64,000 nt of DNA from Minisyncoccota bacterium (GCA_041389005.1 JAWKSR010000002.1:1482-65481), one strand, 5' to 3'. Shown: positions 14,487 to 48,088, counted from the first letter of the stretch. Notes: a model not told the origin generated them from the sequence alone. Translations and numbers: made by a program.

Positions 14487-14526
14487 CCTTTTCGACTGTC
14501 TTTTGTAAGGTAGACCATTTTACGCC

Positions 14527-15401: not shown

Positions 15402-15449
15402 GATTGTAAATTATGATTTGCTAGTGAGGGAATGATATCATGTTTTGAT

Positions 15450-22360: not shown

Positions 22361-22774
22361 ATGGCAACAATCAATCAATTAGCACGAAAAAAGCGCCGCG
22401 ACCCAGTCAAGAAAAGCAAGACTGGTGCGCTGCAAGCTGGCTTCAATAAGATCAAGAACGCACCTAATGAATACAACTCGCCGTTTAAGCGAGGGGTGTG
22501 TACTCGTGTGACAACCAAGACACCACGTAAGCCGAACTCTGCGATTCGTAAAATCGCTCGTGTTCGTTTGAGCAATGGTCAGGAAATCACCGCGTACATC
22601 CCAGGTATTGGACACACGCTTCAAGAACACTCAGTGGTTTTGGTACGTGGGGGTCGCGTGAAAGATATCGGTGTGCAATACACTGTGGTACGTGGTAAGT
22701 ACGATGCCGTTGGTGTTGATGCTCGCCGCCGTGGGCGAAGTCGCTACGGAGCCAAGAAACCAAAAGGAGAGTAG
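22361..22774 (+). CDS. rpsL: 30S ribosomal protein S12
   Basis: [13 protein letters not shown]....[45 protein letters not shown]. Confidence 0.97.
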
Positions 22775-22911
22775 TGAACTCCCTTAATTACAAATAGTTT
22801 ATATTCGCTACAGATTATCGAGTGGTGTCTGTTAAAGACAGAGGACCATTATGCGAAGAATGAAAGAATGATTTGTCATACTTTCTCTTCGTTACACTAA
22901 GTAACAACATT

Positions 22912-23385
22912 ATGAGACGACCAATAAAGAAACGCCCAACCGTAAATCCCGACATTAAGTACGGTGATGTGACTGTTGAGCGCCTCATCAACTACATCAT
23001 GCTTCGTGGTCAGAAGGAGACTGCGCGCAAGATTGTGTACGCTGCTTTTGAGGACATTAAAAATGCCAAAGAAGGTGGTGGCGAGCCAGTTGAAGTATTT
23101 AAGACTGCGCTCCAGAACGCTGGTCCAATGATGGAAGTGCGTTCCCGCCGTGTTGGTGGTGCAAACTACCAGGTACCACGTGAAGTGCGACCAGAGCGCC
23201 GCGAAGCACTGGCGCTACGTTGGATTATTGCTGCAGCACGCAAGCAAAAAGGTATTCCAATGTTCAAAGCCCTGGCAAACGAACTCATGCTCGCCGCTAA
23301 AGAAGAAGGTGATGCAGTAAAGAAGAAGGAGGATACGCATAAGATGGCTGAGGCTAACCGTGCCTTTGCCCACTTCGCCTGGTAA
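22912..23385 (+). CDS. rpsG: 30S ribosomal protein S7
   Basis: MRRPIKKRP...D.KYGD..V.RLINYIM.RGQK..A.KIVY.AF; ends ANRAFAHFAW. Confidence 0.96.
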   Translation: MRRPIKKRPTVNPDIKYGDVTVERLINYIMLRGQKETARKIVYAAFEDIKNAKEGGGEPVEVFKTALQNAGPMMEVRSRRVGGANYQVPREVRPERREALALRWIIAAARKQKGIPMFKALANELMLAAKEEGDAVKKKEDTHKMAEANRAFAHFAW

Positions 23386-31732: not shown

Positions 31733-31794
31733 TACTCACTCTTATTTATGTAGGTAGTGTAGCATTTTCGGTTAACGATAGTGTGCGTAACAAT

Positions 31795-31830
31795 AAAAAG
31801 CCGGACGCGCAGCGTCCGGCTTTTTGTTTT
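31795..31830. terminator. bidirectional rho-independent terminator
   Basis: aaaaaGCCGGACGCgcaGCGTCCGGCttttt. Confidence 0.85.
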
Positions 31831-32012
31831 TAGGCTGCCACCAACACTATGAAGAAGAGGAACGTGCCAATGAGTGGTATCAGCGTCACTGCCGCCACTA
31901 CCATGCGGTCTGAGAGCACAGACTCAAGAGAGTCAACGTAGGTTTCTAGGTCCTGATACGCTTCGCGAAGCAGCGATACGTACGAACGTACGTATGATTG
32001 AATATATTGCAT
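31830..32012 (-). CDS. small tail-anchored membrane protein (60 aa)
   Basis: RBS taGGTGGtgggctATG. MQYIQSYVRSYVSLLREAYQDLETYV...VVAAVTLIPLIGTFLFFIVLVAA. Confidence 0.45.
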   Translation of the reverse strand: MQYIQSYVRSYVSLLREAYQDLETYVDSLESVLSDRMVVAAVTLIPLIGTFLFFIVLVAA

Positions 32013-32093
32013 AGCCCACCACCTAACTAATAAGTAAAAGCGCTCTTTTATTACCACACATTAAAAAATAAGTCAAATAATACAAAGAGTTAG

Positions 32094-32307
32094 GTGACAA
32101 AAAGAAAAGGGTAGGGTATAGTGTGCGCACTTTGCCTACGGGTGAGAGAGTGCGGGGCACTCTCGCAAGACTTTGCTTGGTAGTTTCAGGAATACATGGA
32201 CTGAAATAACGGCAAAGTATACAGAGCCTGTAAGGCTTTTTCTCTCTACGCCAGGTAGGTCATATAGGGAGATATACATAATTATTTATTTAAAATTATT
32301 TGATTTT
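32094..32307 (+). promoter_or_regulatory. fusA promoter (GTGACA-17-TATAGT) plus 185-nt structured leader
   Basis: -35 at 32094-32099, -10 at 32117-32122. The leader contains hairpins gagagtgcggggcactctc and agagcctgtaaggcttttt. No SD before the ATG. Confidence 0.55.
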
Positions 32308-34477
32308 ATGGCACGAGCATTTCCAATTGAAAAGCTACGAAACTTCGGTATCGTTGCCCACGTTGATGCGGGTAAGACAACTACTTCAGAGCGTGTTCTT
32401 TTCTATACCGGTATGAGCCACAAAATCGGTGAGGTACACGATGGTGAGACCGTAACCGACTGGATGGAGCAAGAACGCGAACGTGGTATTACCATTACCG
32501 CCGCAGCGATTTCTTGTAACTGGGAAAAGACTATGGAGACCGATCGTACCAACAAAGATCTCCAACACACCTTCAATATCATCGACACACCAGGACACAT
32601 CGACTTTACCGCTGAGGTAAAGCGGTCTATGCGTGTGCTTGATGGTGCGGTAGTGGTATTTGACGGCGCCGCTGGTGTAGAACCACAAACTGAGACCAAC
32701 TGGGGGTATGCTGACGAAGCCAACGTGCCGCGTATCTGTTTTATCAACAAAATGGATAAATTAGGTGCTGACTATAATGCCTCTATTAAGTCTATTCATG
32801 ACCGATTGTCTCCGAAAGCAGTCCGTATTCAGCTCCCTATCGGTGCGGAAGATTCTCTCTCTGGTGTAGTTGACCTGATTACCATGAAGGCGTATCGCTT
32901 TGGCGGTCAGATGGGTATGGATGTAACTGAGGAAGAGATTCCGGACGACCTGAAAGCTGAGGCAGAGAAGTGGCGTGGTGAGATGATCGAAAAGATTGTT
33001 GAACATGACGACGCCATGATGGAAGCCTATCTTGGTGGAGAAGAACCAAGCAATGAAGATCTTAAAAAGGTTTTGCGTAAGGCGGTAATCGCCAACGAGA
33101 TTTTCCCAATCATGACGGGTTCTGCTCTGAAGAATATTGGTGTGCAACTGGTGCTTGATGCGGTAGTAGATTACCTTCCGGCTCCAACTGATCTGCCACC
33201 AGTAACTGGTACTGATCCAAAACTGAAACAGAAATCACCCGCAATCCAAGCGATGAGGATCCATTTGCAGCGTTGGCGTTTAAGCTCCAGGATGACAAAT
33301 TTGTTGGTCAGTTGGCTTTCTTCCGAGTGTACTAGGGACAGTAAAAGCAGGGTCTTATATTCTCAACTCTTCGACTGGAAATAAAGAGCGTGTAGGACGT
33401 ATTGTACGTTTGATGGCTGACAAGCGTGATGAAGTAGAGGAAGTGTACGCTGGTGAAATTGCTGCTGCAGTGGGTATTAAAGAAGTTAAAACTTCGCATA
33501 CCCTTTGTGACGAATCATCTCCAATTGTACTTGAGCAGATTACCTTCCCAGAACCGGTGGTGGCAGTACGAGTAGAACCAAAAACCAAGAACGACCAAGA
33601 AAAGATGGGTATTGCCCTCAAACGCCTTTCTGACGAAGACCCAACGTTCAAGGTATCTACTGATGATGAGACACTCGAGACCATTATTGCTGGTATGGGT
33701 GAACTCCATCTCGATATTATTGTTGATCGTATGAAGCGTGAATTTGGGGTGGAAGCCAACATCGGTCAACCACAAGTAGCCTACCGAGAGACCATTCAAG
33801 GTGAAGCGGAAGCTGAACATAAGTACGTTAAGCAGTCTGGTGGTCGCGGTCAGTATGGTCACGTTAAATTGCGCATCAAACCACTGGTACCACTGGCAGA
33901 AGGTGAAGAGCCAGCTAAGAACGTTACTCGTGAAGATCACTTTGAATTTGTGGACAGCATCAAAGGAGGGGTTGTACCAAATGAGTATATTCCGGCTGTT
34001 CGTAAAGGTGCTAAGGAAGCTATGGAACGTGGTTTTGTGGCTGGTTACAAGATGGAAGATGTTTCAGTCGAGCTATTCGATGGTTCATACCACGATGTGG
34101 ACTCTTCAGAGATTGCTTTCAAACTTGCTGCTATCAACGCCTTTAAAGAAGCAGCTGCAAAAGCTAATCCGGTTATCCTCGAACCAGTGATGAAAGTAGA
34201 AGTCCGTACGCCTGACGAGTACATGGGAGACATCCAAGGAAACATTTCTTCTAAGCGTGGGCAAATCGAAGCGACCGAAGAAATTGGCGGTAAGACCATT
34301 GTAAATGCCAAAGTCCCACTATCTGAGATGTTTGGTTACACCAACTCGCTCCGCTCAATGACGCAGGGTCGTGCCAGCATGACCATGGAATTTGATCACT
34401 ACGCAGTGGTTCCACCAAATGTCGCAGAAGACATTAAGAAAGCGAGGGGTGTAAAAGCCACTGGCACAGAAGGTTAG
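32308..34477 (+). CDS. fusA: elongation factor G (two single-base frame breaks at 33219-33222 and 33333-33334)
   Basis: [35 protein letters not shown]; DTPGHIDF; NKMDK. The middle reads TDPK(T)[36 protein letters not shown](S)[12 protein letters not shown] only after restoring one base at each site. Confidence 0.95.
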
Positions 34478-34480
34478 AGT

Positions 34481-34506
34481 AAAAAACATCCGAAAGGATG
34501 TTTTTT
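34481..34506 (+). terminator. rho-independent terminator after fusA
   Basis: aaaaaaCATCCgaaaGGATGtttttt. Confidence 0.85.
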
Positions 34507-34508
34507 AC

Positions 34509-34537
34509 TTGAGTGTATTCACAAAACTATATATAGT
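34509..34537 (+). promoter_or_regulatory. sigma70-type promoter (TTGAGT-17-TATAGT) opening the fusA-tuf island
   Basis: -35 at 34509-34514, -10 at 34532-34537. GGAGG at 34557-34561 lies 5 nt before the ATG at 34567. Confidence 0.55.
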
Positions 34538-34566
34538 GTTTACAGACTCAAGCAATGGAGGTTGGT

Positions 34567-35097
34567 ATGGAGCCACAGAAACTTCTTAAGGCGTTTGTCT
34601 CTGAGAGACCGTACTTTTCGCTTAGTGATTGTGGTAAACGAGCCAGCTTTTACTACACAAAACATAATAGACTACCCAATAACGGGGAAAGTACGGTCAT
34701 CGAATTGGTTGACGAAGAAAAAGGTTTTATGATGAGGGGAGAAACTATAGTCCGCTACCCTCTTTTGCAGAAGCGAACAAAAAAATTTGCTGACCAACTT
34801 CTTCAGACGTTACTTCCTTTTGGAGTGATGGTATATTTGTGTGAGCCAAGAACAGTCGGCTTGGAGTGGGACATGCGTCCCTTGATGGCGGATCTCTTTG
34901 ACGATGAGCTACGAGTACAAATCATGTACAATCAACTGTCGTACATGATTTGCGGTCTTATGTGCACGGCCAGTGCCATGCGCCTCAGTCATCGATTAAT
35001 GAACCAGGAGGGACTCGACAGAGCCGAGAAGTTAACTCCAGCTCGACTAGCTGAATACACGGCACATGGCATATTTGAGCCATCCTATATACAGTAA
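34567..35097 (+). CDS. hypothetical protein (176 aa)
   Basis: SD-led ORF, MEPQKLLKAFVSERPYFSLSDCGKRASFYY.... No family recognised. Hairpin AGCCGGGGAacccTCCCCGGCT at 35101-35122. Confidence 0.5.
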   Translation: MEPQKLLKAFVSERPYFSLSDCGKRASFYYTKHNRLPNNGESTVIELVDEEKGFMMRGETIVRYPLLQKRTKKFADQLLQTLLPFGVMVYLCEPRTVGLEWDMRPLMADLFDDELRVQIMYNQLSYMICGLMCTASAMRLSHRLMNQEGLDRAEKLTPARLAEYTAHGIFEPSYIQ

Positions 35098-35173
35098 CCA
35101 AGCCGGGGAACCCTCCCCGGCTTTAATGTTTATTGCGCTTAGAGATATGTTTATTCATGCTATTCTGACTATA

Positions 35174-36271
35174 ATGACCGCCAAGGAAAAACTCACAGAG
35201 GTACTCCAAAAAGCTGACATTACCATCAACGGGTCACGACCAACGGATATTCAAGTGCACGATGAACGGGTCTATGACCGAGTCTTGAGTGGCGGCACGC
35301 TCGCCATTGGAGAATCTTTTATGGACGGTTGGTGGGACGTAGAAGATCTGGCTGAGGTGGTGAATCGTGTACACACCACCAAACTCTATCAGGAAATCGT
35401 GTCGTTTGATGCATGGTGGCTGTTACTCAAAAGTTTCTTAGGAAATCTACAAAGCCGTGCCCGAGCATTTCAGGTTGGACGCGAACACTATGACATCGGT
35501 AATGATCTCTACCAGGCAATGCTCGATGATCGCATGGTGTATACCAGTGGCGTATGGGCTGGAGTCGAAACACTCGAAGCCGCCCAAGAGCAGAAGTTGC
35601 AGATGGTGTGTGAGAAACTAGGACTCAAATCCGGGGATCGAGTGCTCGATATTGGATGTGGGTGGGGAAGTTTTATGAAATATGCAGCTGAAAAGTATGA
35701 TGTGACGTGTGTAGGGCTGACTGTCTCAGTTGGACAAACTGAATTGGGACAGAAAATGTGTGAGAGACTGCCCGTAGAATTTGTTGTTAAAGACTACCGT
35801 GATTATACTGACGTGAAGAAGTTTGACCACATTGCCTCAATCGAGATGATAGAAGCAGTAGGAGCAAAAAACTTTCGTACCTACTTTAAAAAAGCTCATG
35901 AGTTCTTAAAACCGGGCGGACGATTTGTCATACAAGCAATTGGTGATTTAGACAAGAAGCCAGTGCCGAGTGTGTGGCTCGATACCTATATTTTTCCAAA
36001 CGGTATTCTCCCATCTTTGAGTCAGCTAGAAGATGCCAGTCGGTATTTATTTCGAACTGAACATGTAGAAAATATCGGACCAGACTATGATCCTACGCTG
36101 ATGGAGTGGTGGCGGCGTTTTCACCACGCGTACCCGCGATTAAAAGCCAACAATCCAAAATATAACCAACGCTTCTATAAAATGTGGAAGTTCTATCTAC
36201 AAGGCTGTGCCGGGCTGTTCCGTTCTCGGGTTGGGCAAAACTGGCAAATCGTCTACTCCCGAATTGATTGA
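35174..36271 (+). CDS. cfa: cyclopropane-fatty-acyl-phospholipid synthase family SAM methyltransferase
   Basis: HYDIGNDLYQAMLD..M.YTSG.W; SAM motif VLDIGCGWGSFMKYAAEKY; IEMIEAVG..N...YF; FR.W.FYL..CAG.F. Confidence 0.85.
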   Translation: MTAKEKLTEVLQKADITINGSRPTDIQVHDERVYDRVLSGGTLAIGESFMDGWWDVEDLAEVVNRVHTTKLYQEIVSFDAWWLLLKSFLGNLQSRARAFQVGREHYDIGNDLYQAMLDDRMVYTSGVWAGVETLEAAQEQKLQMVCEKLGLKSGDRVLDIGCGWGSFMKYAAEKYDVTCVGLTVSVGQTELGQKMCERLPVEFVVKDYRDYTDVKKFDHIASIEMIEAVGAKNFRTYFKKAHEFLKPGGRFVIQAIGDLDKKPVPSVWLDTYIFPNGILPSLSQLEDASRYLFRTEHVENIGPDYDPTLMEWWRRFHHAYPRLKANNPKYNQRFYKMWKFYLQGCAGLFRSRVGQNWQIVYSRID

Positions 36272-36310
36272 CCTCTTAATCAGTTGTCTCAAGTCAATAT
36301 CTATAAAAAG

Positions 36311-36355
36311 AAAAAACCCCGAGTTGATAAGACCAGGGGTCTTTTCACTCGGGGC
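36311..36355. terminator. bidirectional terminator-like hairpin (cfa / BTLCP)
   Basis: aaaaaaCCCCGAGttgataagaccaggggtcttttcaCTCGGGG. Confidence 0.55.
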
Positions 36356-36370
36356 TCAGCTTGTTTTGCC

Positions 36371-36985
36371 TTACTGGGACGCCAGCTGATGATTATCAGC
36401 GATAAGCTCCCAAGCACCCGGATTCTTGGGCGATTGCCGCTTCAAGAACTGATATGGCGTGTTGCGCCAGTCCTTGATCACATCGGTCAGGTTGTCGAGA
36501 ACCAGATCGCCGCGGTCAGTGCGAACCGTAAGTACGGCGTGCCCTTCACCATTAGATTGCTTGACCACGGTGAGTAGCAACGCCGACATTGGTAAGCCGA
36601 GATTGTGGAGGAATTCTCGCTTGAGAATTACATACTCCTCACAGTCTCCAGCTCGCCTGCGCCATGCTTCACCTGCATTTTGCCAGTAATCTTCAACGCC
36701 GTGGGCCTCTCGGTCAGTGACTGGTGTCACCCCCCGGTTGACCTGGGTGTTAATCCAAATCAACTGGTTGCGCAACTCTGCTGTCAGCGGAAGCCGCTCC
36801 AAAGACTGAAGCGTCAGCTGACAATCTGCCGGATTCCGCCGGCAGTATTTGTAGTGCCCATCCGGAGATGTGGTGTGCCGTTCGGCGACCATCACCCCCG
36901 TTGGTTCAGCTGCTGACCCCAAGACAGGAGTAGCAACCATGATGATGCTCAGCATAAAGCCGAGGGTTGTAAAGAACTTGGTCAT
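36371..36985 (-). CDS. secreted bacterial transglutaminase-like cysteine proteinase (BTLCP, Peptidase C93/DUF920; LapG family)
   Basis: Signal peptide MTKFFTTLGFMLSIIMVATPVLGSAAEP. Cys-His-Asp contexts RRAGDCEEYVILKREFL, NGEGHAVLTV and DLVLDNL. RBS GGGAGG. Own promoter. Confidence 0.8.
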   Translation of the reverse strand: MTKFFTTLGFMLSIIMVATPVLGSAAEPTGVMVAERHTTSPDGHYKYCRRNPADCQLTLQSLERLPLTAELRNQLIWINTQVNRGVTPVTDREAHGVEDYWQNAGEAWRRRAGDCEEYVILKREFLHNLGLPMSALLLTVVKQSNGEGHAVLTVRTDRGDLVLDNLTDVIKDWRNTPYQFLKRQSPKNPGAWELIADNHQLASQ

Positions 36986-37018
36986 GATTGACCTCCCATT
37001 TTGTTTACACTACCCACT

Positions 37019-37047
37019 ATCTTACCATATAAAATGTAAAAAGTCAA
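37019..37047 (-). promoter_or_regulatory. sigma70-type promoter for the BTLCP gene (TTGACT-17-TAAGAT)
   Basis: Minus strand: TTGACT ttttacattttatatgg TAAGAT. -35 at 37047-37042, -10 at 37024-37019. Confidence 0.5.
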
Positions 37048-37154
37048 TATACACCTGGAAATGTCAACAGAATCACGGCATATCCACTTTTTGGGTGTTT
37101 GCGATCCCTTTCGTGCGCAAACAGTTGCTACTATATGATGTATAAACGTTTTGT

Positions 37155-37997
37155 ATGCAATCGATGGATTACGCGCCTCAAGCGACAAGTGCTCCTATTT
37201 CTCAATCTAAAGCGACAGCAACTATGCCTTCGGTGCGTTTCATGGTTAATGATGCTTGGAAGTATGCGAAAGCAAACTGGGCACTTGCAATTTGGTTTGT
37301 AGGAGTCAGCTTATTGTCTTTAGTGTTGTTTGTGTTTACTTCTACATTTATTTTCTCGGTGCTTTTTACACTTAATCTCACAGGTCTCTGGCTGATGTTG
37401 CCGTTATCTATAGTCTTCACATTAGCAGCAGTAGTGCTTTCTGTTTTAAACGTTGGAGCAGTCCTGTATGCAGTCACGTCAGTATCGCAGATTAGTTACT
37501 GGCAGGGTTTCACTTTAGCGTGGACTAATAAGTGGTCGCTGATTGCTATGTACGTGTTGATTGCAGTTGCAACTGTTGGTGGCTTTATGGCCTTGGTTGT
37601 TCCTGTTGTTGCCGTGGGCGTATACCTTAGTATCGCACCTATTGTATGTGCTCGCGAGAGTTGTAGTCCAGTTGCTTCTTTAAATCGAAGTTGGCAACTA
37701 GTGAGCGGTCACTGGTGGAAATTTTTTGTTAGATTGTTTTATGTTGGTCTCGGGGTTGCTTTTGTTGATTTTATACTCAGTTATATTGCGGAAATGACTG
37801 GCGTCATAGGCGGGCTGGTTCAAATGCTTGTGAGTGCGTTTATTCTTGTTTTCGTGTTGCGAATATTGGTTGTATGGTACGAATTCTTCTTACATAAAGG
37901 CTCAGCCTATACGTCACAGCATAATTGGTGGCTGCTTAGCGTGTTGTTACTTGGCGTTTTGGGCATTTTGCTTTTAGCAGTCTTATATCTCGTGTAA
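37155..37997 (+). CDS. polytopic membrane protein (6-7 TM), hypothetical
   Basis: 280 aa, almost entirely hydrophobic helices. A SWQLVSGHWWKFFVRLFYVGLG segment is reminiscent of DUF975/GDPD-membrane-type domains (tentative). Confidence 0.6.
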   Translation: MQSMDYAPQATSAPISQSKATATMPSVRFMVNDAWKYAKANWALAIWFVGVSLLSLVLFVFTSTFIFSVLFTLNLTGLWLMLPLSIVFTLAAVVLSVLNVGAVLYAVTSVSQISYWQGFTLAWTNKWSLIAMYVLIAVATVGGFMALVVPVVAVGVYLSIAPIVCARESCSPVASLNRSWQLVSGHWWKFFVRLFYVGLGVAFVDFILSYIAEMTGVIGGLVQMLVSAFILVFVLRILVVWYEFFLHKGSAYTSQHNWWLLSVLLLGVLGILLLAVLYLV

Positions 37998-38109
37998 GTT
38001 AATATACGTCTGAATACTACGTCTGTGCACACCCTTGTGTAGTTTGAGCACAACCACCCGCTATAATAAATCAATAGTTTAATAGCCATTTAATACACCC
38101 TCAGCCGGG

Positions 38110-41100
38110 GTGTATCCTATGTTCACCACCCATTCTTTTTGGTCACGTTTTATTGTATTGATACTGGTAATACAGTTGGCACTTCCCCTTCCTGTAGTGG
38201 CGGGCATTAGTGGGTCAAATGATAATGCGGGGGCTGGTCCTGGCGAATCAGATAAATCTGCTGAAGGTGGTGTTGGACAAGGTAGTGGCGGTGGGTCCTC
38301 TTCTGGTTCGGGTAACAATGGTGGTGGCTCTTCCTCTGGCGGTGATCCTGCAGCCGGTGGCGATCCCAGTGCTGGCGGTGATCCTGCAGCCGGTGGCGAT
38401 CCCGCTGGTACCAACACCGGTGGCTTTGACCAAAGTGGTAATATCAGCGCCGGTGGTGGCTTTAATGCCGACGGTAGCATTAGTGACCCCGCTACTGGAG
38501 AAGAAGCAGTGTCTGCCGCTGAAGTAGCTCAAGCCAGTGGTTTAGGTATTGGTATTGACCCGGCCGCTACTGTGGAGGGAATCAATAACGGTACTTTGGG
38601 TAATGGACAAGTGGTTGATAAACAAGGACAAACCCGTGATATTGCAAAAGAACAGGCAATCAGCGACCGGGTTGGCAACGCCTTTGGTGAAGCAAATGAT
38701 CCAGATGTTGAGGCACAGTCCCGAGCTGGTGGATTGGCTGCGAGTGATATCTCAAAGGCTCTTGGCTCCCGTTCACAAGTTTCTGTTACCGGGAGTATGC
38801 TTGATCCAACCCCAGTTGCTAGACAAGGTTTCACGCATACTGGCTTTGTGTCCAACATAACGGATACTTACGATGGCATAACTAACACAAACACCTTATC
38901 TACCTCTCTTAACCCCACGCCAATTTCCGAACAGAAACAATCATCACTTTCACACACTGGTTTTGCTGCGAGTCTTGGTCCGGCCGCACGCTCAGTGAGT
39001 ACTGACACAGTTTCACCGACTAGTCCAAGCTTAGGTATTGGAGCTTTTTCGTTGGAGCCTAACGTGGCTTTAGGCTACGATCGAAACTTCGGTACTTTTT
39101 CCGGAGTAACACGTACTGCTAACGAGTTTGGTCTTGATACAGTTTCGCGCTCAACCCCGGCGGAAATTGCACGAGCTAATCCGACAGCTGCTCTTGCGAA
39201 CGAAAATTTTGCGAATCGTACTACAGAAATTGAGCAAGAGATCGAAGGTTTAAAGGCAAGTATTGCTGCACAGCAGCAAGGTATGATTGACGCTTTGTCA
39301 GTGGATGAAACAGCTACAATTTCCCAGGTAGACACCATTTCCTTACAGGCTGATGAAATGACTCTAGAAGCGCTCGAAGCTGAGTTGGCTGCTCGGCAGA
39401 GTCTTGATCCAACCGCCATGACTGAGGCGACGGCACTAGGTGCGATAGCGGCAAGCGGTCAAACTACAGCAGCAAATGCTCGTGCTCGGGATCAGAGTGT
39501 GCCTGGCGCAGCGCGTGAAGCAGCGCTTGACGCTGCAGATATGGAGGCTTTAGGTCAGCAAATGGAGGCAATAAAAGCGGATGCTGATCTGGCACAGGAA
39601 ATTGCAACGCTCTCAAGAGAGATGGCTCAGAATAATACAGCAAACACAGTAGCTATTGGTTTTGACTACGGTTCAATACGTGGACTGGACCCAACTCCAG
39701 TAGCTGAGATGTCTTTTGATCCAGTCAATAATCCGGGTCTTGGTATTAGTACCCAGGCTGCATTCGGGTATCCAGACACACCTGCCTCCCAGACTGCCAA
39801 CCCTGGTTCCATTTCACGCAACAATCCAACTGTCGATGCACCGACTCCATCAGCACGAGCGTATGCAGAGACTGTGAATACCCTTGAAGGACTTGGTCTT
39901 TCAACGCCAACCGCGCAATCTGTTGCCACCGGTCTTGGCATTGCTGCCCGTTCTGTGCCTGGAGTTGACACACTTTCAAATGCACTTGATGCGGTTGAAT
40001 TGGCTGACAGAGCGCGCCAAGCACGCGAGGCAGCTGCCGCCGCCACCGATCCAACAGTGGCACAGAACAACACTGTTGCTGCTGACGTCTACGGAGCGAT
40101 GGCAACTCAAGCAACCAAAAATGCAGTTGTGAGCGGCGTTATCGACTTAGGTATAACTGTCGCCGCCCCGGCACTGTCACCAAATAATTTTGCACCATCA
40201 GTACGTACTGGTCGGTCGATTAGCGCGCCTGCCAACAACAATTTCGCTTCTGGGGCAGTGGCTACGGATATTGGCAGAACTGCTCAACAGTCAGTCAGTG
40301 ACACTGTGGCAACCGCCAATCGAACTAATTCACCGAACACTAGTGCTACTCCCTCTGGAGTGCGGGCAGCCAATGATAATGTAAGTCCGACCGGGTCTCG
40401 ATCGGTTACTGCAGACGATACGGTAAGTGTTAACGTAAGCCGTGATCCGGTTACGGGCAGTGTCACTGGAGTTTCTGTCGGTATTTCTCGAGGAACAGTT
40501 TCAAGTGCGGCTGCACGTTCGACTGATAATATAGCAGGAACAGTTGGTCGTAGTGCCGATGACGCTCTGGGAGCTGCAGGAACGGCTGCACGTTCAGCAG
40601 ATGACGCAGCTGGCACAGTCGGTCGTAGTGCTGACGATGCGGCAGGTACCGGTGGACGAGTTGGCGAAGACACATCGGGAACAGTCGGGCGTACGGCTGA
40701 TGATACTAGCACCAATGTTGCTCGAGCTAATCAGCAACCGGCTGACCCTGGAGTGAATTTAGGCAATAGTTCCGCTAACGTCCGTGGCGCTACACCCGCT
40801 TCTACGGTGACAAACCAACAAGCACGTGGTGTTGTCGCTGCTTTAAATAGTCGTAATCCTGTCTCAAATCCTACTACTGCGCGCGCCAAGACAGTAGCTG
40901 CTTTAGCAGTAGCAATTAATTTGGCACAAGTAGCTATCCCGTCAGTAGTGCCAACCGCTAGCAAAATAGCCGGAGGAATTACTGAAGTCGCAGTTCGCAC
41001 GGCTGATGATATTTCAGTGTCGTCAGTTCGAGTTGGTGACTTGAGCACAAACATCTCGCGTAATACTGCTAATACAGGAGTAACTGCTAGTCAGGTTTCA

Positions 41101-44097
41101 AGAATTGGTGTTAGTTCGGTTGATGAGACCGCCACTGCAGTAGCGCTCGGCGCCATCGGCACGGTTAATGTTTCAAATCAAATTTCAGTTGCCAATCCAA
41201 ACACCGCTGTCAACAGCCCGTCTGCTTCCGCTTTAGGTGATTTTGATTCTGTAAATCCAACCGGATCGGCAGGAACGCCTGATCGAGCTGTTGGGAGCAC
41301 AGATACTCCAGCTGCTGGTGGGGATGTAAATACAACAGCGAATCCGACTTCACAAAACCCAGGCACTAATCTTGGACGTACCATCGGTTCGACTGTCGGT
41401 GGTTTTGTCAGTGATGCTAGTACGGTAGCGTTACAAACACTCGGTGAGTTTTTTGGAGTACGACCAGCACAGTCTGGTATTAGAGTTGATGGTCAAGTTC
41501 TCACCAACGCTCAGTACGTAGGACTGGGGTACGCTCGTATCGGTACCGAAGATGTAAAAAGTACAGCCCGCACCCTGGCTGGAGAATTGCAAGCGTCAAT
41601 CAGAAACACCTTTGTCAGTAATTATAACCGTGGTGGTTTGCAGGCAGGCTTAGATAGTCTTTCAGTCCGTGATAAGCAAGCAGTAGGAGGAATTATCAAT
41701 ACTGCTGCTAATCGTATTAATCCTGGACGAACTGACTACGATTCTTTCAAAGAAGTATATGAAGCAACGAGTCAATATAGTACGTACAATCCTGGTGAGA
41801 CAGGACCAGGCACCGCTGCGTACCGACAAAATACTGCAGCGCTTGATGCTCTTGCGGAAGCGTTCTTGGATGGAACAGTTGCCCGAATGTATGGCGTCAA
41901 CGTGGCAGTACCATTCCCAACTGCCACTCACTATCACGCTAGTTATGTAAGTCCTGGCTGGAAAAATGATCTCAATCAAGTTTCCCCGGGTTCTTATGGA
42001 CTTCACTTCTTTTATACCACGGTAGGTACGCCACACGGCATTCCGTATAGTCGAGTTGCTTCTCGAGATATAACTGGACCAGTTGCAGTACCGACTACTG
42101 GTAGTCTAATCGCCGCAACTGACGCAGCGCAACACACGAATCCGACACCGCAGCAACAAAATGTGATCCAAAAAGTAAATATTGTACAGCGTCCTTCCTT
42201 GCAGCAATTAGGAAACCCGGATGACGCTCGACCACAGGGAAGCCGAGTGGTTCAACGGGGTCAGACTACGCCAGTAGCACCAAATGATATAACCGCTCTT
42301 AAGGAACGAGCAAGCCAATTACAAGATAGGGTAAATTCTTTAAGAGACACTACGCCACAACAACGTGTGTCTACTCCAGCACAAACCACCTCAGCGCCAA
42401 CACAGACCAATGTCCAAACAACTCCAGGTGTAACGACTCAGGCACCACGGCAGGTAGTGAATGTCTTTATCTCCGGTCTGTTAGGTGATGGAGTTATGCG
42501 TGGAGTGATTTCTTTGGTAAAACAACGTGGATTGGATAATATTGTTCATATTAAAGACAGTAACGTCTCTCAGCGAACAGTGACCGAACAGCTTAAAGCG
42601 CTAGGACCGGACACCGTGGTCAATATCTTTGGTCATTCCCGTGGAGTGTTCCGTGGTATAGAGGTGGCACGGGAATTACAGGCAGCGGGGATGACGGTAG
42701 AAAACTTCTTTGCTTTCGATGGGCATTGGACTGGACTATCAGCTTCCAAAGTGTCACCAAATGTTGCAAATTTTGTTGATTTCCGTCCGGCAGTGGGTTC
42801 GTGGGCAGATCGGTATGGAGCGGACGCCTTTATTGATAAGTCTGCCAACACTGCCACCAACTACCAATCAGTTCGGGTTGGTGGGTTATTGGGAGCAGCT
42901 GGTCAAATCGGCGTAATAGAGGGGTTACTAGGGCCTGTTAGTATTCCCCTCAAGGTTGCAGGTAGTCACGTGGCGGGTGTGTTTAACCCGAGTCTACTAG
43001 ATAGAACAGCAAATACATTTAACCAAGCGCCTTCTCCACAAGTAGTGGAAACAACTCGTCCAGGTGTCACGCAAGAAGCTCCAGCTACCTCACAAACTAA
43101 TAGTCTGTATGATCAGTTACAGCGTGGTATTCAAAACGGCTCACTCACTCTGACAACTACCGGAGCAGACGTAACGGTTGCGACCAAGCCTGGTCAAACA
43201 ACCAATCTTAGTATCCAGGCACCAAATGGTACTCGTTCGGTATTATCTGGTAGTCTTGCTATTACGGTAAATGAAGCTGGTAGCATCAGTATCAAAGGGA
43301 CAACAGGGGACACTAATCTTTCACTCCAAGTCAAAGACCGTGTTATTAGTGGCAAACTCAACATCTCGGTTCAACCTGACGGTAGTGCCGTGGTTGGTAC
43401 ACTAGATAATCAACTAAATGTTGATGGACGCAGTGCCAATGTTAGTGTAAACATTTCAGCATCGGGCGTCTTAGAAGCAATTGGAAATGGTTTTGTTGGT
43501 CAGACCGTCGCTGCTCTTGTGAATGGATTGGTCGGGGGCGCTGGCACCACTGCTCAACAAATCAGCGATATTTTGGGCGAAGTGAGTAAAACAGGTCAAG
43601 GTATTTACTCTGATGCAGTTAGTGGTCAACTATCTGAGACTGCTCCAGCTACTACTGCATCACTTCCAGAACTGACAGATCGTGCTGGTGTAGAGACGCA
43701 AAACGTCAATCCAAGTAATCAAACAACTGGATTTAATCCAACTCCAAGCGATTACTATGCTGGAGCTATTCCTGGCTTGCCTGAGTTAGGGGCGGTACCT
43801 GGGTATGCCCCAGGCACCACCTATGGTGTTACGGCCACTAAAAATGCTCAGCCAGTACAAGGAATTATCACCCACCATGCTTTGGGCACTGCTGAAAGCG
43901 TTGCGGCTTATGGGCAAAAACGTGATGCTAAGCGTGGAGGAGTGTTTGGGTACCATGTTGTGATTGGTGCAAAAAAGATGGGAGTGTCAGCATTGTACAG
44001 GCAGCTCCTCTCGATCAACGTACTAACCATTACTCCAACAAAAGTGCTGCCAGAAATAAAGATGGTGTTCTTGGTCCGCTTAATAGCGTGGGAGTAA
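38110..44097 (+). CDS. giant envelope protein, part 1 of 3 (1,995 aa): N-terminal anchor, Gly-rich PAAG repeats, long Ala/Thr/Ser-rich region, SleB/CwlJ-like cell-wall hydrolase, GxSxG alpha/beta-hydrolase, start of Amidase_2
   Basis: Anchor FWSRFIVLILVIQLALPLPVVAG. SleB-like (about 41680-42020): GGIINTAANRIN...ATHYHASYVSPGW...GLHFFY. GHSRG at 42631-42645. Amidase_2 begins at 43861 (GIITHHALGT...GYHVVIG). Confidence 0.8.
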   Translation: MYPMFTTHSFWSRFIVLILVIQLALPLPVVAGISGSNDNAGAGPGESDKSAEGGVGQGSGGGSSSGSGNNGGGSSSGGDPAAGGDPSAGGDPAAGGDPAGTNTGGFDQSGNISAGGGFNADGSISDPATGEEAVSAAEVAQASGLGIGIDPAATVEGINNGTLGNGQVVDKQGQTRDIAKEQAISDRVGNAFGEANDPDVEAQSRAGGLAASDISKALGSRSQVSVTGSMLDPTPVARQGFTHTGFVSNITDTYDGITNTNTLSTSLNPTPISEQKQSSLSHTGFAASLGPAARSVSTDTVSPTSPSLGIGAFSLEPNVALGYDRNFGTFSGVTRTANEFGLDTVSRSTPAEIARANPTAALANENFANRTTEIEQEIEGLKASIAAQQQGMIDALSVDETATISQVDTISLQADEMTLEALEAELAARQSLDPTAMTEATALGAIAASGQTTAANARARDQSVPGAAREAALDAADMEALGQQMEAIKADADLAQEIATLSREMAQNNTANTVAIGFDYGSIRGLDPTPVAEMSFDPVNNPGLGISTQAAFGYPDTPASQTANPGSISRNNPTVDAPTPSARAYAETVNTLEGLGLSTPTAQSVATGLGIAARSVPGVDTLSNALDAVELADRARQAREAAAAATDPTVAQNNTVAADVYGAMATQATKNAVVSGVIDLGITVAAPALSPNNFAPSVRTGRSISAPANNNFASGAVATDIGRTAQQSVSDTVATANRTNSPNTSATPSGVRAANDNVSPTGSRSVTADDTVSVNVSRDPVTGSVTGVSVGISRGTVSSAAARSTDNIAGTVGRSADDALGAAGTAARSADDAAGTVGRSADDAAGTGGRVGEDTSGTVGRTADDTSTNVARANQQPADPGVNLGNSSANVRGATPASTVTNQQARGVVAALNSRNPVSNPTTARAKTVAALAVAINLAQVAIPSVVPTASKIAGGITEVAVRTADDISVSSVRVGDLSTNISRNTANTGVTASQVSRIGVSSVDETATAVALGAIGTVNVSNQISVANPNTAVNSPSASALGDFDSVNPTGSAGTPDRAVGSTDTPAAGGDVNTTANPTSQNPGTNLGRTIGSTVGGFVSDASTVALQTLGEFFGVRPAQSGIRVDGQVLTNAQYVGLGYARIGTEDVKSTARTLAGELQASIRNTFVSNYNRGGLQAGLDSLSVRDKQAVGGIINTAANRINPGRTDYDSFKEVYEATSQYSTYNPGETGPGTAAYRQNTAALDALAEAFLDGTVARMYGVNVAVPFPTATHYHASYVSPGWKNDLNQVSPGSYGLHFFYTTVGTPHGIPYSRVASRDITGPVAVPTTGSLIAATDAAQHTNPTPQQQNVIQKVNIVQRPSLQQLGNPDDARPQGSRVVQRGQTTPVAPNDITALKERASQLQDRVNSLRDTTPQQRVSTPAQTTSAPTQTNVQTTPGVTTQAPRQVVNVFISGLLGDGVMRGVISLVKQRGLDNIVHIKDSNVSQRTVTEQLKALGPDTVVNIFGHSRGVFRGIEVARELQAAGMTVENFFAFDGHWTGLSASKVSPNVANFVDFRPAVGSWADRYGADAFIDKSANTATNYQSVRVGGLLGAAGQIGVIEGLLGPVSIPLKVAGSHVAGVFNPSLLDRTANTFNQAPSPQVVETTRPGVTQEAPATSQTNSLYDQLQRGIQNGSLTLTTTGADVTVATKPGQTTNLSIQAPNGTRSVLSGSLAITVNEAGSISIKGTTGDTNLSLQVKDRVISGKLNISVQPDGSAVVGTLDNQLNVDGRSANVSVNISASGVLEAIGNGFVGQTVAALVNGLVGGAGTTAQQISDILGEVSKTGQGIYSDAVSGQLSETAPATTASLPELTDRAGVETQNVNPSNQTTGFNPTPSDYYAGAIPGLPELGAVPGYAPGTTYGVTATKNAQPVQGIITHHALGTAESVAAYGQKRDAKRGGVFGYHVVIGAKKMGVSALYRQLLSINVLTITPTKVLPEIKMVFLVRLIAWE
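38338..38409 (+). repeat. coding tandem repeat, 4 x 18 nt (GGDP[A/S]AG)
   Basis: ggcggtgatcctgcagccggtggcgatccc occurs twice. Encodes GGDPAAGGDPSAGGDPAAGGDPAG, with PAAG at 38347-38358 and 38383-38394. Confidence 0.9.
40534..40710 (+). repeat. coding tandem repeat, about 5 x 33 nt (AGTVGRSADDA-like)
   Basis: AGTVGRSADDALGAAGTAARSADDAAGTVGRSADDAAGTGGRVGEDTSGTVGRTADDTS. Confidence 0.85.
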
Positions 44098-45614
44098 GTA
44101 TCGCCATAGAACTTGTATCGCGAGGTGAGTTTAATCGCAATACTTCGTTGCGAGGTCAGTACGGAAATTACAATAATTATGTGAATTCTTCACTGACCAA
44201 CCCACCGCAAGCAGCGGTCGAAGCGGGTGTGGCAGTGATACGGGCCTTAGCAGACCACTTCGATATTAACGTTACTCCAACTACTGTGAGACCGCATTTC
44301 AAAGGTCCTAACGAAGGAGTTGCTCTGGCGCAAGCAGTACTGGACTCATATCGACCTGGCGTTCAAACTTCACCAGCTAACCGTTCCCTCGGAACTATTA
44401 GTACTCAACCAACCACAGAACAGACAGAACAGACAGAACAGACAGGACTAGTGTCAGATACCGCTACTACATTTAATGAAGCGGTTGTCGAACTAGGAGT
44501 CCGTACCGCAAATATCGCTGCCAAATTAAATGAAGCAAATCTCACCGCTACTGAACGCGTAGCCCTTTCTAGTGAACTTGATGCTTTGAATAATGTAGCC
44601 GATAGTCTCGACCGAGCGCAAAGAGAACTAAGTAGCGGCAACACGCAACAAGCTACTGAAGCTATTACGCGCGCTCAAAACCAACTTGATCAAAATATCA
44701 ACAATGATGAACAGAACACCGGTTTGGCTATTGGGTTAGGTGCAATCGGAATAGCGCTGGCGTTGTCTTTGTTGGGAAGTTTGTTTGGTGGACGATTGTC
44801 TAATCAGCAGAACATTGACCCAGATGACCCAGATGCAGATGGCGGTGGTGGACGTTCTGGCACGAGTGACCCATTTGGTGGAGCCTTTTCACCGCAACGT
44901 GAATTCAGTTATCGCACCGCAACTATCTTTGGGGTTATTCCAGTGCTTGCGCTATTGACCACTCTTGTTCAGCAAGCGCTTCAACAATCAGACGATGATC
45001 TTCCTGCAGGAAGTATCCAACAAAATCAAGAAATCACTGTTGCTACCAATCTTGCTTATGACCCAGACACCAATTCGACAAATAATCCAGGAGCACAAAA
45101 CACAAATAACCCTGGAGGAAATAGTAAGACTGGTGGCTGGCTGAGTAAGCTTGGTATCGTAAAGACGCCGTACGCGACTTCCACCGCGTATATACAAAAT
45201 ACGGAAGTGGTGGAGGTTGGTATTGTAAAAGACATACAGACTGGGGAAATTGTGATTAGTCGTGATGTTGGAGAAGGATATCTCAATTATTTTGGGACAG
45301 ATGATTCGCTTATTACAAGTACTACAAGTTTGTATGCAATTGCCAACCATATTGTGCTCAATGAGTATAATGAAGTCGTTTACTCAGATGGTGTATATGC
45401 TCCTGTTACTATAGATGGAATTCAGTATATGCTTCCAGGTGATCCAGAGTATGTTTATGTTGTTACATATACGGATAATGGAGTGCCTGTCCAGATTGAA
45501 AATAATGCTGGAGTTGTTGAAGAGAGTTTCTTAGAAAACGCACTTCTGATAAAGTGTTTACTGATGATGGAGAATTTACACAATATGAAATCATACAGAT
45601 TACCCGTTCACTAA
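44088..45614 (+). CDS. giant envelope protein, part 2 of 3: rest of the Amidase_2 (N-acetylmuramoyl-L-alanine amidase/PGRP) domain, coiled coil, two TM helices
   Basis: Adding one A to the A6 run at 43971-43976 gives GYHVVIGAKKDGSVSIVQAAPLDQRTNHYSN....NSVGVSIAIELV, a continuous Amidase_2 pattern. TM helices at about 44721-44790 and 44917-44975. TEQ x3 repeat at 44415-44444. Confidence 0.75.
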   Translation: MGVSIAIELVSRGEFNRNTSLRGQYGNYNNYVNSSLTNPPQAAVEAGVAVIRALADHFDINVTPTTVRPHFKGPNEGVALAQAVLDSYRPGVQTSPANRSLGTISTQPTTEQTEQTEQTGLVSDTATTFNEAVVELGVRTANIAAKLNEANLTATERVALSSELDALNNVADSLDRAQRELSSGNTQQATEAITRAQNQLDQNINNDEQNTGLAIGLGAIGIALALSLLGSLFGGRLSNQQNIDPDDPDADGGGGRSGTSDPFGGAFSPQREFSYRTATIFGVIPVLALLTTLVQQALQQSDDDLPAGSIQQNQEITVATNLAYDPDTNSTNNPGAQNTNNPGGNSKTGGWLSKLGIVKTPYATSTAYIQNTEVVEVGIVKDIQTGEIVISRDVGEGYLNYFGTDDSLITSTTSLYAIANHIVLNEYNEVVYSDGVYAPVTIDGIQYMLPGDPEYVYVVTYTDNGVPVQIENNAGVVEESFLENALLIKCLLMMENLHNMKSYRLPVH

Positions 45615-46672
45615 CTGACCCGAACGCAAACATACCTCGTGATGAATTTTATACGTATGCTATTTATTTAACCGATGGATCGGTACGCCGGGTGACCGTA
45701 CCGGAGTTTACATCTATTGCGTTCCTAGAAACCCGGTTTGCCTCAGTTGGGTATCAAGGAAACGTCCTCCAGCTTATCGCTTTAGCTGAAGACGTCGCAC
45801 CGACTGAAGCAGAACAAAGTTTTGTCGATGTGATCTTAGATATCGTTGGTGTTTCCGCGACCACATTAGCGAACATCTTTGACTTTGGCAGAGATGATAC
45901 TCCTGCCGAAACGTATACTGATTTATCAGATAGTACACCAACCAATGACGGATTGATCGATATGGACGATATTAAAAGTGCCATTGTGTACTTTGGCGTT
46001 GATGCGAATTGTCCGAACGCACCAGGACTTGATCAATCGTATCTCTACGAGATCATTATTGCCAAAGAGGCCCTTTATGATAGTCAGAGAGACGTTGCGT
46101 TGCGAGTAGCACGTTGTGGAGCTGGTGATAAATGGTCGTATGTAAACGCGATTGCCAGCCACCTTGAGTCCCAGCCAGCGTTTGGAAACATAGACCGTAC
46201 AGTGCTCTACGATATGATTCTCTTTGGAGATTTGCGCAATTTGGCTCTAATTGAACCTGAAGTGAGTGAAGATACAGAATTCTTTAGTGAACCAGATGAT
46301 TCTTCAGAAGAACACACGGCAGCGGTGGTAGAGATTCCAAACCGTACCAACACTGTTGAATTTGAGGCCCGAGTAACCAATAACACTGGTGCGATTACAA
46401 CTGATTGGACTACTGGCAATCTCACAGTCAATCAGTCTGATGCTCTCAGTTTCCGCTGGGAAGCTGGTGACTATGAGCGATGTTTACCATTCTTGCAAGA
46501 TAATGGTGGGTATGCCTTCTCTTATAACGATGGCGCGATGACACGTGGAAACACGGAAGTGGTTGGATATACTGTACCGACGCAAAGTGGCACCTATTAT
46601 ATAGAGTGTGCTGGGCAAAATAATGGTGAATTCGGTGTTGACGTAAAAGCCATCGACATTGCCATACAATAG
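45554..46672 (+). CDS. giant envelope protein, part 3 of 3: C-terminal extracellular region ending in an Ig-like beta-sandwich
   Basis: Overlaps part 2. The frames join with a 1-nt change around the A4 run at 45535-45538 (..VVEESFLE/KRTSDKVFTDDGEFTQYEIIQ). C-terminal FEARVTNNTGAITTDW..LTVNQSDALSFRWEAGDYERC....GTYYIECAG. Confidence 0.65.
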   Translation: MFTDDGEFTQYEIIQITRSLTDPNANIPRDEFYTYAIYLTDGSVRRVTVPEFTSIAFLETRFASVGYQGNVLQLIALAEDVAPTEAEQSFVDVILDIVGVSATTLANIFDFGRDDTPAETYTDLSDSTPTNDGLIDMDDIKSAIVYFGVDANCPNAPGLDQSYLYEIIIAKEALYDSQRDVALRVARCGAGDKWSYVNAIASHLESQPAFGNIDRTVLYDMILFGDLRNLALIEPEVSEDTEFFSEPDDSSEEHTAAVVEIPNRTNTVEFEARVTNNTGAITTDWTTGNLTVNQSDALSFRWEAGDYERCLPFLQDNGGYAFSYNDGAMTRGNTEVVGYTVPTQSGTYYIECAGQNNGEFGVDVKAIDIAIQ

Positions 46673-46900: not shown

Positions 46901-48088
46901 ATGGCAGATTTCGATCGAAGTAAGCCGCACATTAACGTAGGTACCATTGGTCACGTAGACCATGGTAAAACTACCCTTACTGCTGCGATTCTTACTTCTC
47001 TTAAAGCTAAAGGTGATGGCTACGATGCCAACGTTAAGGCAGTAGAAGACATTGATAAGGCGCCAGAAGAAAAGGCGCGCGGTATTACTATCTCGCTTTC
47101 TCACTCAGAGTACGAGACTCCAAACCGCCACTACGCACATATCGATGCTCCTGGTCACGCTGACTACATCAAAAACATGATTACTGGTGCTGCTCAGATG
47201 GACGGCGCGGTACTTGTGGTAGCAGCGACTGATGGTGCGATGCCTCAAACTCGTGAGCACGTGCTACTTGCTAAGCAGGTAGGTGTTCCTAAGATCATCG
47301 TGTTCCTTAACAAGTGTGACATGGTTGATGATGAGGAAATGCTCATGCTCGTAGAAGAAGAACTTCGTGAGCTTCTTACCTCAAATGGATTTGATGGTGA
47401 AAATGCACCAATCATCAAAGGTTCAGGTCTTAAGGCGCTTGAAGGTGATGCTGATTATCAAGCAAAGATCATCGAATTGGTTGATGCTATGGACAGCTAC
47501 TTCCCAACTCCAGAACGAGAACTCGATAAACCATTCCTTATGCCGATCGAGGACATCTTCTCTATTGAAGGTCGCGGTACGGTAGTAACTGGTCGTGTAG
47601 AACGCGGTCAGGTGAAGGTGGGTGAAGAAGTTGAGATTGTTGGTATCAAAGACACTACCACTACTACAGTGACTGGTGTTGAGATGTTCAACAAGCAGCT
47701 TGACCAAGCACAAGCTGGAGACAACGCTGGTATCCTCCTTCGTGGTACCAAGAAAGAAGACGTACACCGTGGTCAGGTATTGGCTGCAAAAGGTTCAGTA
47801 ACTCCACACACTGAGTTTGAAGCTGAAGTGTACGTTCTCTCTAAGGAGGAAGGAGGTCGTCACACCCCATTCTTTTCTGGGTACAAGCCACAGTTCTACG
47901 TACGTACTACTGACGTAACCGGTGACGTAACACTCGCTGAAGGTACTGAAATGGTGATGCCAGGAGACACTGCAACATTCAAGGTGAAATTGGTAGCACC
48001 AGTAGCGCTTGAAGAACAGCAAAACTTTGCTATTCGTGAGGGTGGTAAAACCGTTGGTGCTGGTGTGGTAACCAAGATCGTCGCCTAA
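46901..48088 (+). CDS. tuf: elongation factor Tu
   Basis: [23 protein letters not shown]; DAPGHADY; NKCD; intact 395 aa. Confidence 0.98.

Follow-up and report, generated by a model that had tools for sequence, protein, structure and literature searches.

A secreted BTLCP protease, a YciC-like membrane protein and a giant, predicted wall-cleaving exoprotein form a conserved three-gene locus in Patescibacteria

Patescibacteria are ultra-small bacteria that spend their lives attached to other microbes, and little is known, as far as we are aware, about the ways in which they open or remodel cell walls. We asked what is encoded by the block that lies between fusA and tuf in a 64,000-nucleotide (nt) stretch of a Minisyncoccota bacterium (GCA_041389005.1 JAWKSR010000002.1:1482-65481; hereafter the window), in which a secreted cysteine protease of the BTLCP (Peptidase_C93) family, a polytopic membrane protein and a giant exoprotein are encoded side by side. 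We read positions 36371-46672 (10.3 kb) as an envelope module of three genes that is conserved in a small clade of Patescibacteria and in which the protease processes the giant protein. The conserved module itself is real; the link between enzyme and substrate and the site of any cut are what we infer, and we hold this reading tentatively, at somewhat less than an even chance. According to it, the Sec-secreted BTLCP would act on the outer face of the membrane and process the giant protein, be it by maturation, activation or shedding, while the YciC-like membrane protein would position or control the protease. The giant protein would be exported by Sec, held by a transmembrane (TM) hairpin, and would display peptidoglycan-cleaving domains (SleB-like, Amidase_2 and a GxSxG hydrolase) followed by a C-terminal domain of 440 amino acids (aa). 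The BTLCP gene would have been recruited from an alphaproteobacterial PAS_5-PilZ-BTLCP orthogroup. The three genes, and the promoter of the first, are:

36371..36985, minus strand: secreted BTLCP/Peptidase_C93 cysteine protease, 204 aa (PF06035)
37019..37047, minus strand: sigma-70-type promoter with an extended -10 element, TTGACT-17-TG-TAAGAT, upstream of the BTLCP gene (promoter scan)
37155..37997, plus strand: polytopic membrane protein, 280 aa, ~5-6 TM segments, YciC/UPF0259-like (hydropathy)
38119..46672, plus strand: giant exoprotein gene, 2,851 aa after repair of 1-nt deletions after 43976 and 45538

The window protease is a true BTLCP with an intact catalytic triad, and its structural model has the LapG fold. 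PF06035 matched it at 1.4e-55 (187.9 bits against a cut-off of 27) over 159 of the 162 profile positions, and a signal peptide occupies aa 1-~25. A first-pass annotation of the window had called a secreted BTLCP/Peptidase C93 protease at 36371-36985 from three motif contexts, all of which are present: GDCEEY from aa 113, GEGHAVL from 146 and LVLDN from 161. They hold the triad Cys115/His149/Asp164 and the acidic motif D114-C-E116-E117, and C115, H149, D164, D114 and E116 were unchanged across an alignment of 50 homologues. A phmmer comparison with the LapG structure 4U65_E gave 1.1e-9, with the LapG motifs GDCEDY, HMVL and LVLD aligned. The AlphaFold2 (AF2) model of the protease (predicted local distance difference test score (pLDDT) 87.8; predicted TM-score 0.80) returned LapG structures as its top six Foldseek matches in the PDB (E 2.7e-8 to 5.8e-7, probability 1.00, TM-scores 0.50-0.59). 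Profile search and structural model thus both bore out the family assignment. Below LapG, Foldseek weakly matched CPR-C4 (7OB6/7PJO; E ~1e-3, TM-score ~0.33), a separate family of cysteine proteases reported from the Candidate Phyla Radiation (CPR).

Judged by its profile score, the protease is not a LapG orthologue, because it reached 48.4 bits against the cut-off of 320 for the LapG equivalog NF045674. Its neighbour-joining distances were 0.72 to LapG and 0.36 to the alphaproteobacterial type, its nearest relatives were Hyphomicrobiales proteins (48% identity), and its sequence places it in the alphaproteobacterial PAS_5-PilZ-BTLCP group. The members of this group are the closest sequences to the proteases of the module (48-53% identity near full length), and they have the same size and the same composition of signal peptide plus BTLCP domain. 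Their context, however, differs entirely: in three of three neighbourhoods read the order was Rhomboid-PAS_5-PilZ-BTLCP, with neither a giant hydrolase nor a YciC-like neighbour.

Under genetic code table 11, the giant region consists of three open reading frames (ORFs) in three frames (38110-44097, 44088-45614 and 45554-46672), and the NCBI deposit accordingly lists three proteins. Addition of one base after 43976, in an A-run, and of one after 45538 gave a single 2,851-aa ORF from the ATG at 38119. An alternative genetic code was ruled out as the cause of the split, since the breaks are frame changes and not in-frame stops. Because the Amidase_2 domain is detectable only across the first repair, and because an intact 3,329-aa orthologue, P0128, is colinear with the window protein through both frameshift sites (47% identity over 441 aa, 41% over 228 aa and 38% over 191 aa), we regard the three ORFs as one true gene on sequence grounds. 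P0128 was the sole multi-domain homologue among 1.84 billion representatives; the full-length giant protein gave no match in a word-indexed protein search, in which low complexity probably swamped the candidates. The first-pass annotation had described a giant gene of ~2,850 aa, which is right in length after repair, but it missed the frameshifts that leave three ORFs in this assembly. The two sites belong to a set of eight single-base frameshifts that are confined to 30319-45538. Besides these two, fusA has two (~33262 and ~33335), and the other four lie on the minus strand in an oxidoreductase gene of the pyridine-nucleotide-disulfide type (30319-31732). The ORFs of the ribosomal-protein genes at 48-60 kb appear unbroken. 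The eight frameshifts may be assembly errors or real decay.

After repair, the giant protein has the following parts, all on the plus strand:

38119..38205: probable cleavable Sec signal peptide, aa 1-29, ending ...PLPVVAG↓ISG (hydropathy; AXA-type sites in the family)
38206..38418: Gly/Ser-rich low-complexity linker with two PAAG motifs, both of which lie inside a 36-nt tandem duplication
41503..42042: SleB-like (Hydrolase_2) cell-wall hydrolase domain, aa 1129-1308 (weak PF07486 match; relatives)
42451..43038: alpha/beta-hydrolase-like domain, with a GHSRG nucleophile elbow at 42631-42645 (aa 1505-1509)
43846..44297: Amidase_2 (N-acetylmuramoyl-L-alanine amidase) domain, aa 1910-2060, split by the first frameshift
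44715..44981: putative tethering TM hairpin, aa 2200-2227 and 2266-2288 (Kyte-Doolittle)
45351..46669: family-defining C-terminal domain, ~440 aa, interrupted by the second frameshift

The Gly/Ser-rich residues are 30-100, and the next ~1,000 residues match no recognisable family. The three lytic domains that the first-pass annotation had named stand on unequal footing. The Amidase_2 domain scored above its cut-off after repair (PF01510, 8.3e-10, 39.5 bits against 26), its region is 41% identical to P0128 over 228 aa across the frameshift, and it matched a PHROG endolysin at 3.5e-5. The GHSRG elbow of the hydrolase-like domain is present and is kept in P0128 as GWSKG, with the Thioesterase profile PF00975 just under its cut-off (26.0 against 26.4 bits). 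The SleB-like domain fell below the PF07486 cut-off of 27 in the window protein (17.7-18.4 bits), while the profile matched three of four homologous domains of the family (best 1.8e-6); the window domain is 38% identical to that of P0128 and has a weak PHROG endolysin match. In the PDB, the SleB-like profile found no SleB structure and only spurious spidroin matches, and phmmer with aa 1100-1952 of the giant protein found no match. A coiled-coil-like stretch lies between Amidase_2 and the TM hairpin. P0128 has a matching hairpin (aa 2673-2787), as well as the same signal peptide and C-terminal domain. The latter is 47% identical between the two proteins and, in a 13-member alignment, has four invariant Cys and the motifs CLPFL[NQ]DNG and YRIECGGQ. 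Pfam scans of these 13 domains gave weak matches to DUF3876 and PPC and no convincing family; an AF2 model of the domain from a three-sequence alignment was unusable (pLDDT 56.5) and was excluded from the fold search. The giant protein thus has the same types of catalytic domain as phage endolysins and autolysins (SleB/CwlJ, Amidase_2/PGRP, LysB-like esterases), here in one polypeptide and with weak PHROG endolysin matches. In contrast to these enzymes, it is ~2,850 aa long, predicted to be Sec-exported and membrane-tethered, and has an N-terminal region of ~1,100 aa of low complexity or unknown type, and its C-terminal domain is specific to the family. It is encoded on the chromosome and is conserved across Patescibacteria.

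The membrane-protein gene lies head-to-head with the BTLCP gene, and hydropathy of the product of 37155-37997 agrees with the 280-aa polytopic protein first proposed. Its likeness to UPF0259/YciC is weak in the window (PF06790, 15.6 bits against a cut-off of 31.4; NF002774, 21.2 against 227); PF06790 has precomputed matches on near-identical proteins and on the homologue encoded by contig L005. The window protein is homologous to the membrane proteins of contigs L005 and L008 (blastp 2e-9). The BTLCP promoter occupies the same position in all three of these loci, with TTGAC and TATG.TA..AT invariant in an alignment of the intergenic regions.

Relatives of the locus are carried by contigs L003-L021; a profile search of contigs with a two-sequence alignment gave no confirmed relative, and one with a three-sequence alignment succeeded. 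L003 and L004, independent short-contig assemblies from other samples, repeat the window arrangement at 98.8% and 99.8% identity with gap-free BTLCP/membrane-protein/giant junctions, which rules out a misassembled chimera. In the window, between fusA and tuf, the order is BTLCP (minus), membrane protein (plus), giant (plus). L005, which encodes P0128 and is identical to L015 (Hainich groundwater), has the order giant (plus), two genes, UPF0259/DUF7847 membrane protein (minus), Peptidase_C93 (plus) and ClpB, with the membrane-protein gene 2.5 kb downstream of the giant gene. L008, a 5.3-kb contig of a metagenome-assembled genome (MAG) labelled Saccharibacteria, carries the C-terminus of a giant gene, the membrane protein (minus), BTLCP (plus) and clpB (minus). 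The trio is therefore found at two unrelated chromosomal sites, fusA/tuf in the window and clpB in L005 and L008. Relative to the giant gene, the membrane-protein/BTLCP pair has opposite orientations at the two sites, but the pair itself is head-to-head everywhere. Synteny in related genomes, which the first-pass annotation had left to be looked for, is thus present in two further Patescibacteria MAGs, where BTLCP and membrane protein adjoin giant orthologues, and this distribution is the pattern expected of a functional module. The BTLCPs of L005 and L008 are 40% identical to that of the window, and each is 48-53% identical to the alphaproteobacterial group; these sequences may reflect a single acquisition with rapid evolution thereafter, or two acquisitions. 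The L005 BTLCP is a probable lipoprotein, and that of L008 has an N-terminal signal or anchor segment.

The ~440-aa C-terminal domain defines a Patescibacteria-wide family of giant exoproteins (L005-L021 plus the window) whose lytic cargo is swappable, comprising SleB-like, M15-like (TSGGQ..RHDxGNAxDG), M23-like, Amidase_2 and GxSxG hydrolase domains. Around distant members, 30-41% identical in the C-terminal domain, the available sequence (up to 10 kb per side) showed neither a BTLCP nor a YciC-like gene; those examined were P0149/L007, UBA918, UBA6201, a Nomurabacteria MAG and others. Most of these BTLCP-less giants occupy another conserved site, in the order Mur ligase, giant, a convergent gene for a ~200-aa secreted protein, SpoU methylase, holA-like and polA. 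A small secreted neighbour was seen throughout the BTLCP-less loci whose neighbours were inspected (L007, L009, L010, L011, L013 and L014), and by homology these neighbours form two groups, one made up of L007/L009/L010/L011/L014 (E 1e-6 to 1e-37), the other of L011_169/L013 (E 3e-9). The BTLCP-linked loci showed no homologue of the small secreted neighbour, which may be an alternative control or inhibitor partner of the giant protein. L005 also holds extra paralogous pieces at 12944-15417 and 3-2759: the N-terminus of the giant protein, with its signal peptide and GGPGP, recurs in a 628-aa protein, and the last ~110 aa of the C-terminal domain are found again in a partial 918-aa ORF upstream.

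Large surface proteins are established substrates of BTLCPs, and LapG, DvhG and V. cholerae LapG make Ca-dependent cuts at [T/A/P]AAG in adhesins of type I secretion systems (T1SS) (PMC3032545, PMC6890996, PMC13090378). Like the LapG-LapD-LapA systems (Pseudomonas; V. cholerae LapG/FrhA/CraA; Desulfovibrio DvhG/DvhA), the window locus has a secreted Cys-His-Asp protease of the BTLCP fold, probably Ca-dependent, beside a very large surface protein that carries [T/A/P]AAG-type motifs near its N-terminus. Unlike in those systems, the protease falls short of LapG orthology (48 versus 320 bits), the candidate substrate is predicted to be Sec-exported and held by a TM hairpin and has peptidoglycan hydrolases in place of adhesin repeats, the organism is presumably monoderm, and the conserved partner is a YciC-like membrane protein. 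The absence of T1SS, LapD and RTX noted at first reading was upheld: neither these nor GGDEF/EAL domains were seen in the larger ORFs scanned at 7.4-48 kb, a scan that was not exhaustive. A LapD-like receptor (HAMP-GGDEF-EAL) for cyclic di-GMP (c-di-GMP) was likewise lacking among the block genes, the flanking ORFs scanned and the L005 locus, and genes for ABC transporter, membrane fusion protein and TolC components, as well as RTX, had no match among the block and flanking ORFs scanned. No folded N-terminal retention module with a conserved [T/A/P]AAG was found in the giant protein, in which the motif lies in the Gly/Ser stretch directly after the signal peptide. The trio is thus a variant on the known theme of a BTLCP with a large surface protein, and not a LapG system. 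A second point of comparison is HvyA of Caulobacter crescentus, which restricts capsulation and requires its catalytic triad (PMC4241560). HvyA, too, is a secreted BTLCP of alphaproteobacterial type with an envelope target other than a T1SS adhesin; in contrast to the window locus, which lacks polysaccharide genes, it is encoded inside a capsule export locus.

Does the protease, then, cut the giant protein in the manner of LapG? The first-pass annotation had proposed just this, with a cut at the di-alanine of PAAG behind an N-terminal membrane anchor that would release or activate the giant protein. In V. cholerae FrhA, PAAG has been validated as the site of the LapG cut (PMC6890996), and [T/A/P]AAG is used across classes (PMC13090378); the D-C-E-E calcium-site residues are present in the window BTLCP; and both BTLCP-linked giants carry a motif within their first 130 aa (window, 77 and 89; P0128, 124), whereas the BTLCP-less P0149 has none in its 2,042 aa. 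The two PAAG copies do lie where they had been placed, at nt 38347-38358 and 38383-38394, which correspond to aa 77-80 and 89-92 counted from the ATG at 38119. The anchor did not hold up, however. N-termini across the family end in signal-peptidase-type sites (AYA↓VE, SLA↓ME and VFA↓QS) followed by GGPGP, the window protein has VAG↓IS, and the hydrophobic segment is therefore probably a cleavable signal peptide, with no folded retention module before the motif; the TM hairpin at aa 2200-2288 appears the likelier tether. Because the signal peptide would be removed and the hairpin lies downstream, a cut at PAAG would strip off a Gly-rich tail of ~50-60 residues and would leave the giant protein in place. 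Furthermore, both PAAG copies sit in one recent duplication: 38335-38406 contains a perfect 32-nt match at a 36-nt offset, a tandem duplication that encodes GGDPAAGGDPSA twice and creates the second PAAG, and that is also found in L003. The motif [TAP]AA[GV] occurs four times in the repaired giant protein against 2.2 expected (p = 0.17), and the probability of at least one occurrence in aa 30-150 at the local composition was 0.18. Its position is not conserved among orthologues, as the AAAG of P0128 at 124 is at a non-homologous place where the window has QASG. One of the five BTLCP-less relatives with a complete N-terminus has the motif as well (L013, AAAG at 113), and the difference from the BTLCP-linked giants (two of two) was not significant (Fisher p ~0.14). 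Taken together with the equivalog score and the failure to find LapD and T1SS, a LapG-style mechanism at PAAG is unsupported beyond resemblance, and we consider it improbable.

The chance-level count and shifting positions of the di-alanine motifs also weigh against our preferred reading, that the protease processes the giant protein at all, as do several further points. The trio is known from three genomes, of which L005 and L008 are related, and because these two share the location beside ClpB the arrangements are effectively two. The window BTLCP and those of L005/L008 fall apart in a crude neighbour-joining tree. Real frameshifts would mean that the module is decaying in this genome. The relation of protease to giant protein is suggested by gene adjacency and by precedent, and the precedents include HvyA, a BTLCP directed at capsulation and not at an adhesin (PMC4241560), so the target here could be something else. 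The strongest rival builds on this and is in our view unlikely, though to be taken seriously: BTLCP and the YciC-like protein would form a two-gene unit acting on another envelope target, as HvyA does on the Caulobacter capsule, and would adjoin the giant gene through a shared envelope island or co-regulation. BTLCP targets are lineage-specific (PMC4241560), the nearest relatives occur in the PAS_5-PilZ context with no large substrate gene nearby, and the head-to-head pair is the only part strictly kept, the orientation and distance of the giant gene varying by locus. Yet the pair has so far been seen only beside this giant family, at two unrelated chromosomal sites, in loci without capsule or polysaccharide genes. 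That the genes have no functional link, and that the block was pieced together from decaying genes of horizontal origin in a str region prone to rearrangement, would fit the eight frameshifts in 30.3-45.6 kb, the str operon split twice, a BTLCP that looks foreign to Patescibacteria with its closest relatives in Alphaproteobacteria, and possibly a neighbouring cyclopropane-fatty-acyl-phospholipid synthase (Cfa) gene whose product passes a standard equivalog model; we give it as little credence as the LapG-style cut, given that the trio recurs in L005 and L008 at another locus with an intact 3,329-aa ORF, that neither the BTLCP nor the membrane protein is broken, and that the promoter of the BTLCP gene is conserved. 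Very improbable, finally, is a BTLCP that acts as a transglutaminase and forms a covalent bond between the giant protein (or its Gly-rich N-terminus) and either the wall or another protein. The fold is transglutaminase-like, transamidation has been discussed for the family (PMC4241560), and a Gly/Pro-rich mature N-terminus is common to the giant protein and its paralogues, but the biochemically defined BTLCPs (LapG, DvhG and V. cholerae LapG) are proteases (PMC3032545, PMC6890996, PMC13090378) and no feature specific to cross-linking was found here.

Processing of the giant protein by the BTLCP remains the reading that we prefer. A bolder form of it, which we regard as speculative and rather unlikely, is that BTLCP and the YciC-like protein constitute a monoderm counterpart of LapG/LapD that works without c-di-GMP, a protease switch positioned at the membrane by which a giant, membrane-tethered peptidoglycan-degrading protein with several enzyme domains is shed or activated. 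During episymbiosis this protein would serve to open the host wall or to remodel the cell's own, and the small secreted neighbour would fill the control role in sister lineages. A protease-controlled giant wall hydrolase would, if true, be a concrete piece of the machinery with which Patescibacteria breach walls, and it would show BTLCPs paired with large surface proteins outside diderms, type I secretion and c-di-GMP control as well. The comparison also delimits a widespread family of Patescibacteria giant exoproteins, whose lytic domains are swappable and whose C-terminal domain is conserved. In the literature searched, BTLCP was not found in combination with Patescibacteria, Saccharibacteria or CPR.

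The module shares the space between fusA and tuf with two further genes:

32173-34477: fusA (Pfam), with two 1-nt frameshifts
34567..35097, plus strand: hyp176, hypothetical 176-aa protein without a hydrophobic segment (NCBI start)
35066..36271, plus strand: Cfa, cyclopropane-fatty-acyl-phospholipid synthase (PF02353, 1.7e-76; NF008686)
46901-48088: tuf (Pfam)

With both flanking genes placed by Pfam, the gap between them is 12,423 nt, in agreement with the 12.4-kb block first described, and the NCBI start likewise agrees with the hypothetical gene proposed from 34567. The claim that the block has promoters of its own found no backing as a general feature, since 22 promoter-like sites against 16.8 +/- 4.3 in shuffled sequence are no enrichment. 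Hyp176 had zero family matches in Pfam, NCBIfam and PHROGs, and no homologue among the relatives' loci L005-L021. The methyltransferase had been recognised correctly as Cfa-type: besides its PF02353 match it exceeds the NCBIfam equivalog NF008686 (466.9 bits against a cut-off of 400), in an alignment that begins at residue 38, and its true start is probably near 35174. It is of the E. coli type, which is surprising for a lineage believed to rely on host lipids. Because both hyp176 and Cfa are missing from the L005 and L008 loci, we dropped them as members of the module; they are passengers of the block. There are no tRNA genes in the window. On the other side of fusA, rpsL (22361-22774) and rpsG (22873-23385) are followed by ~8.9 kb of unrelated genes, namely hypotheticals, DUF1801, an HD-domain protein and DedA/VTT. 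Since rpsL/rpsG lie ~9 kb upstream and the 12.4-kb block precedes tuf, the str operon is broken up both before and after fusA. Further upstream, at 7379-10264, the window encodes a predicted surface protein of 961 aa with Pentaxin/LamG-like, CarboxypepD_reg, SpaA and DUF2341 domains.

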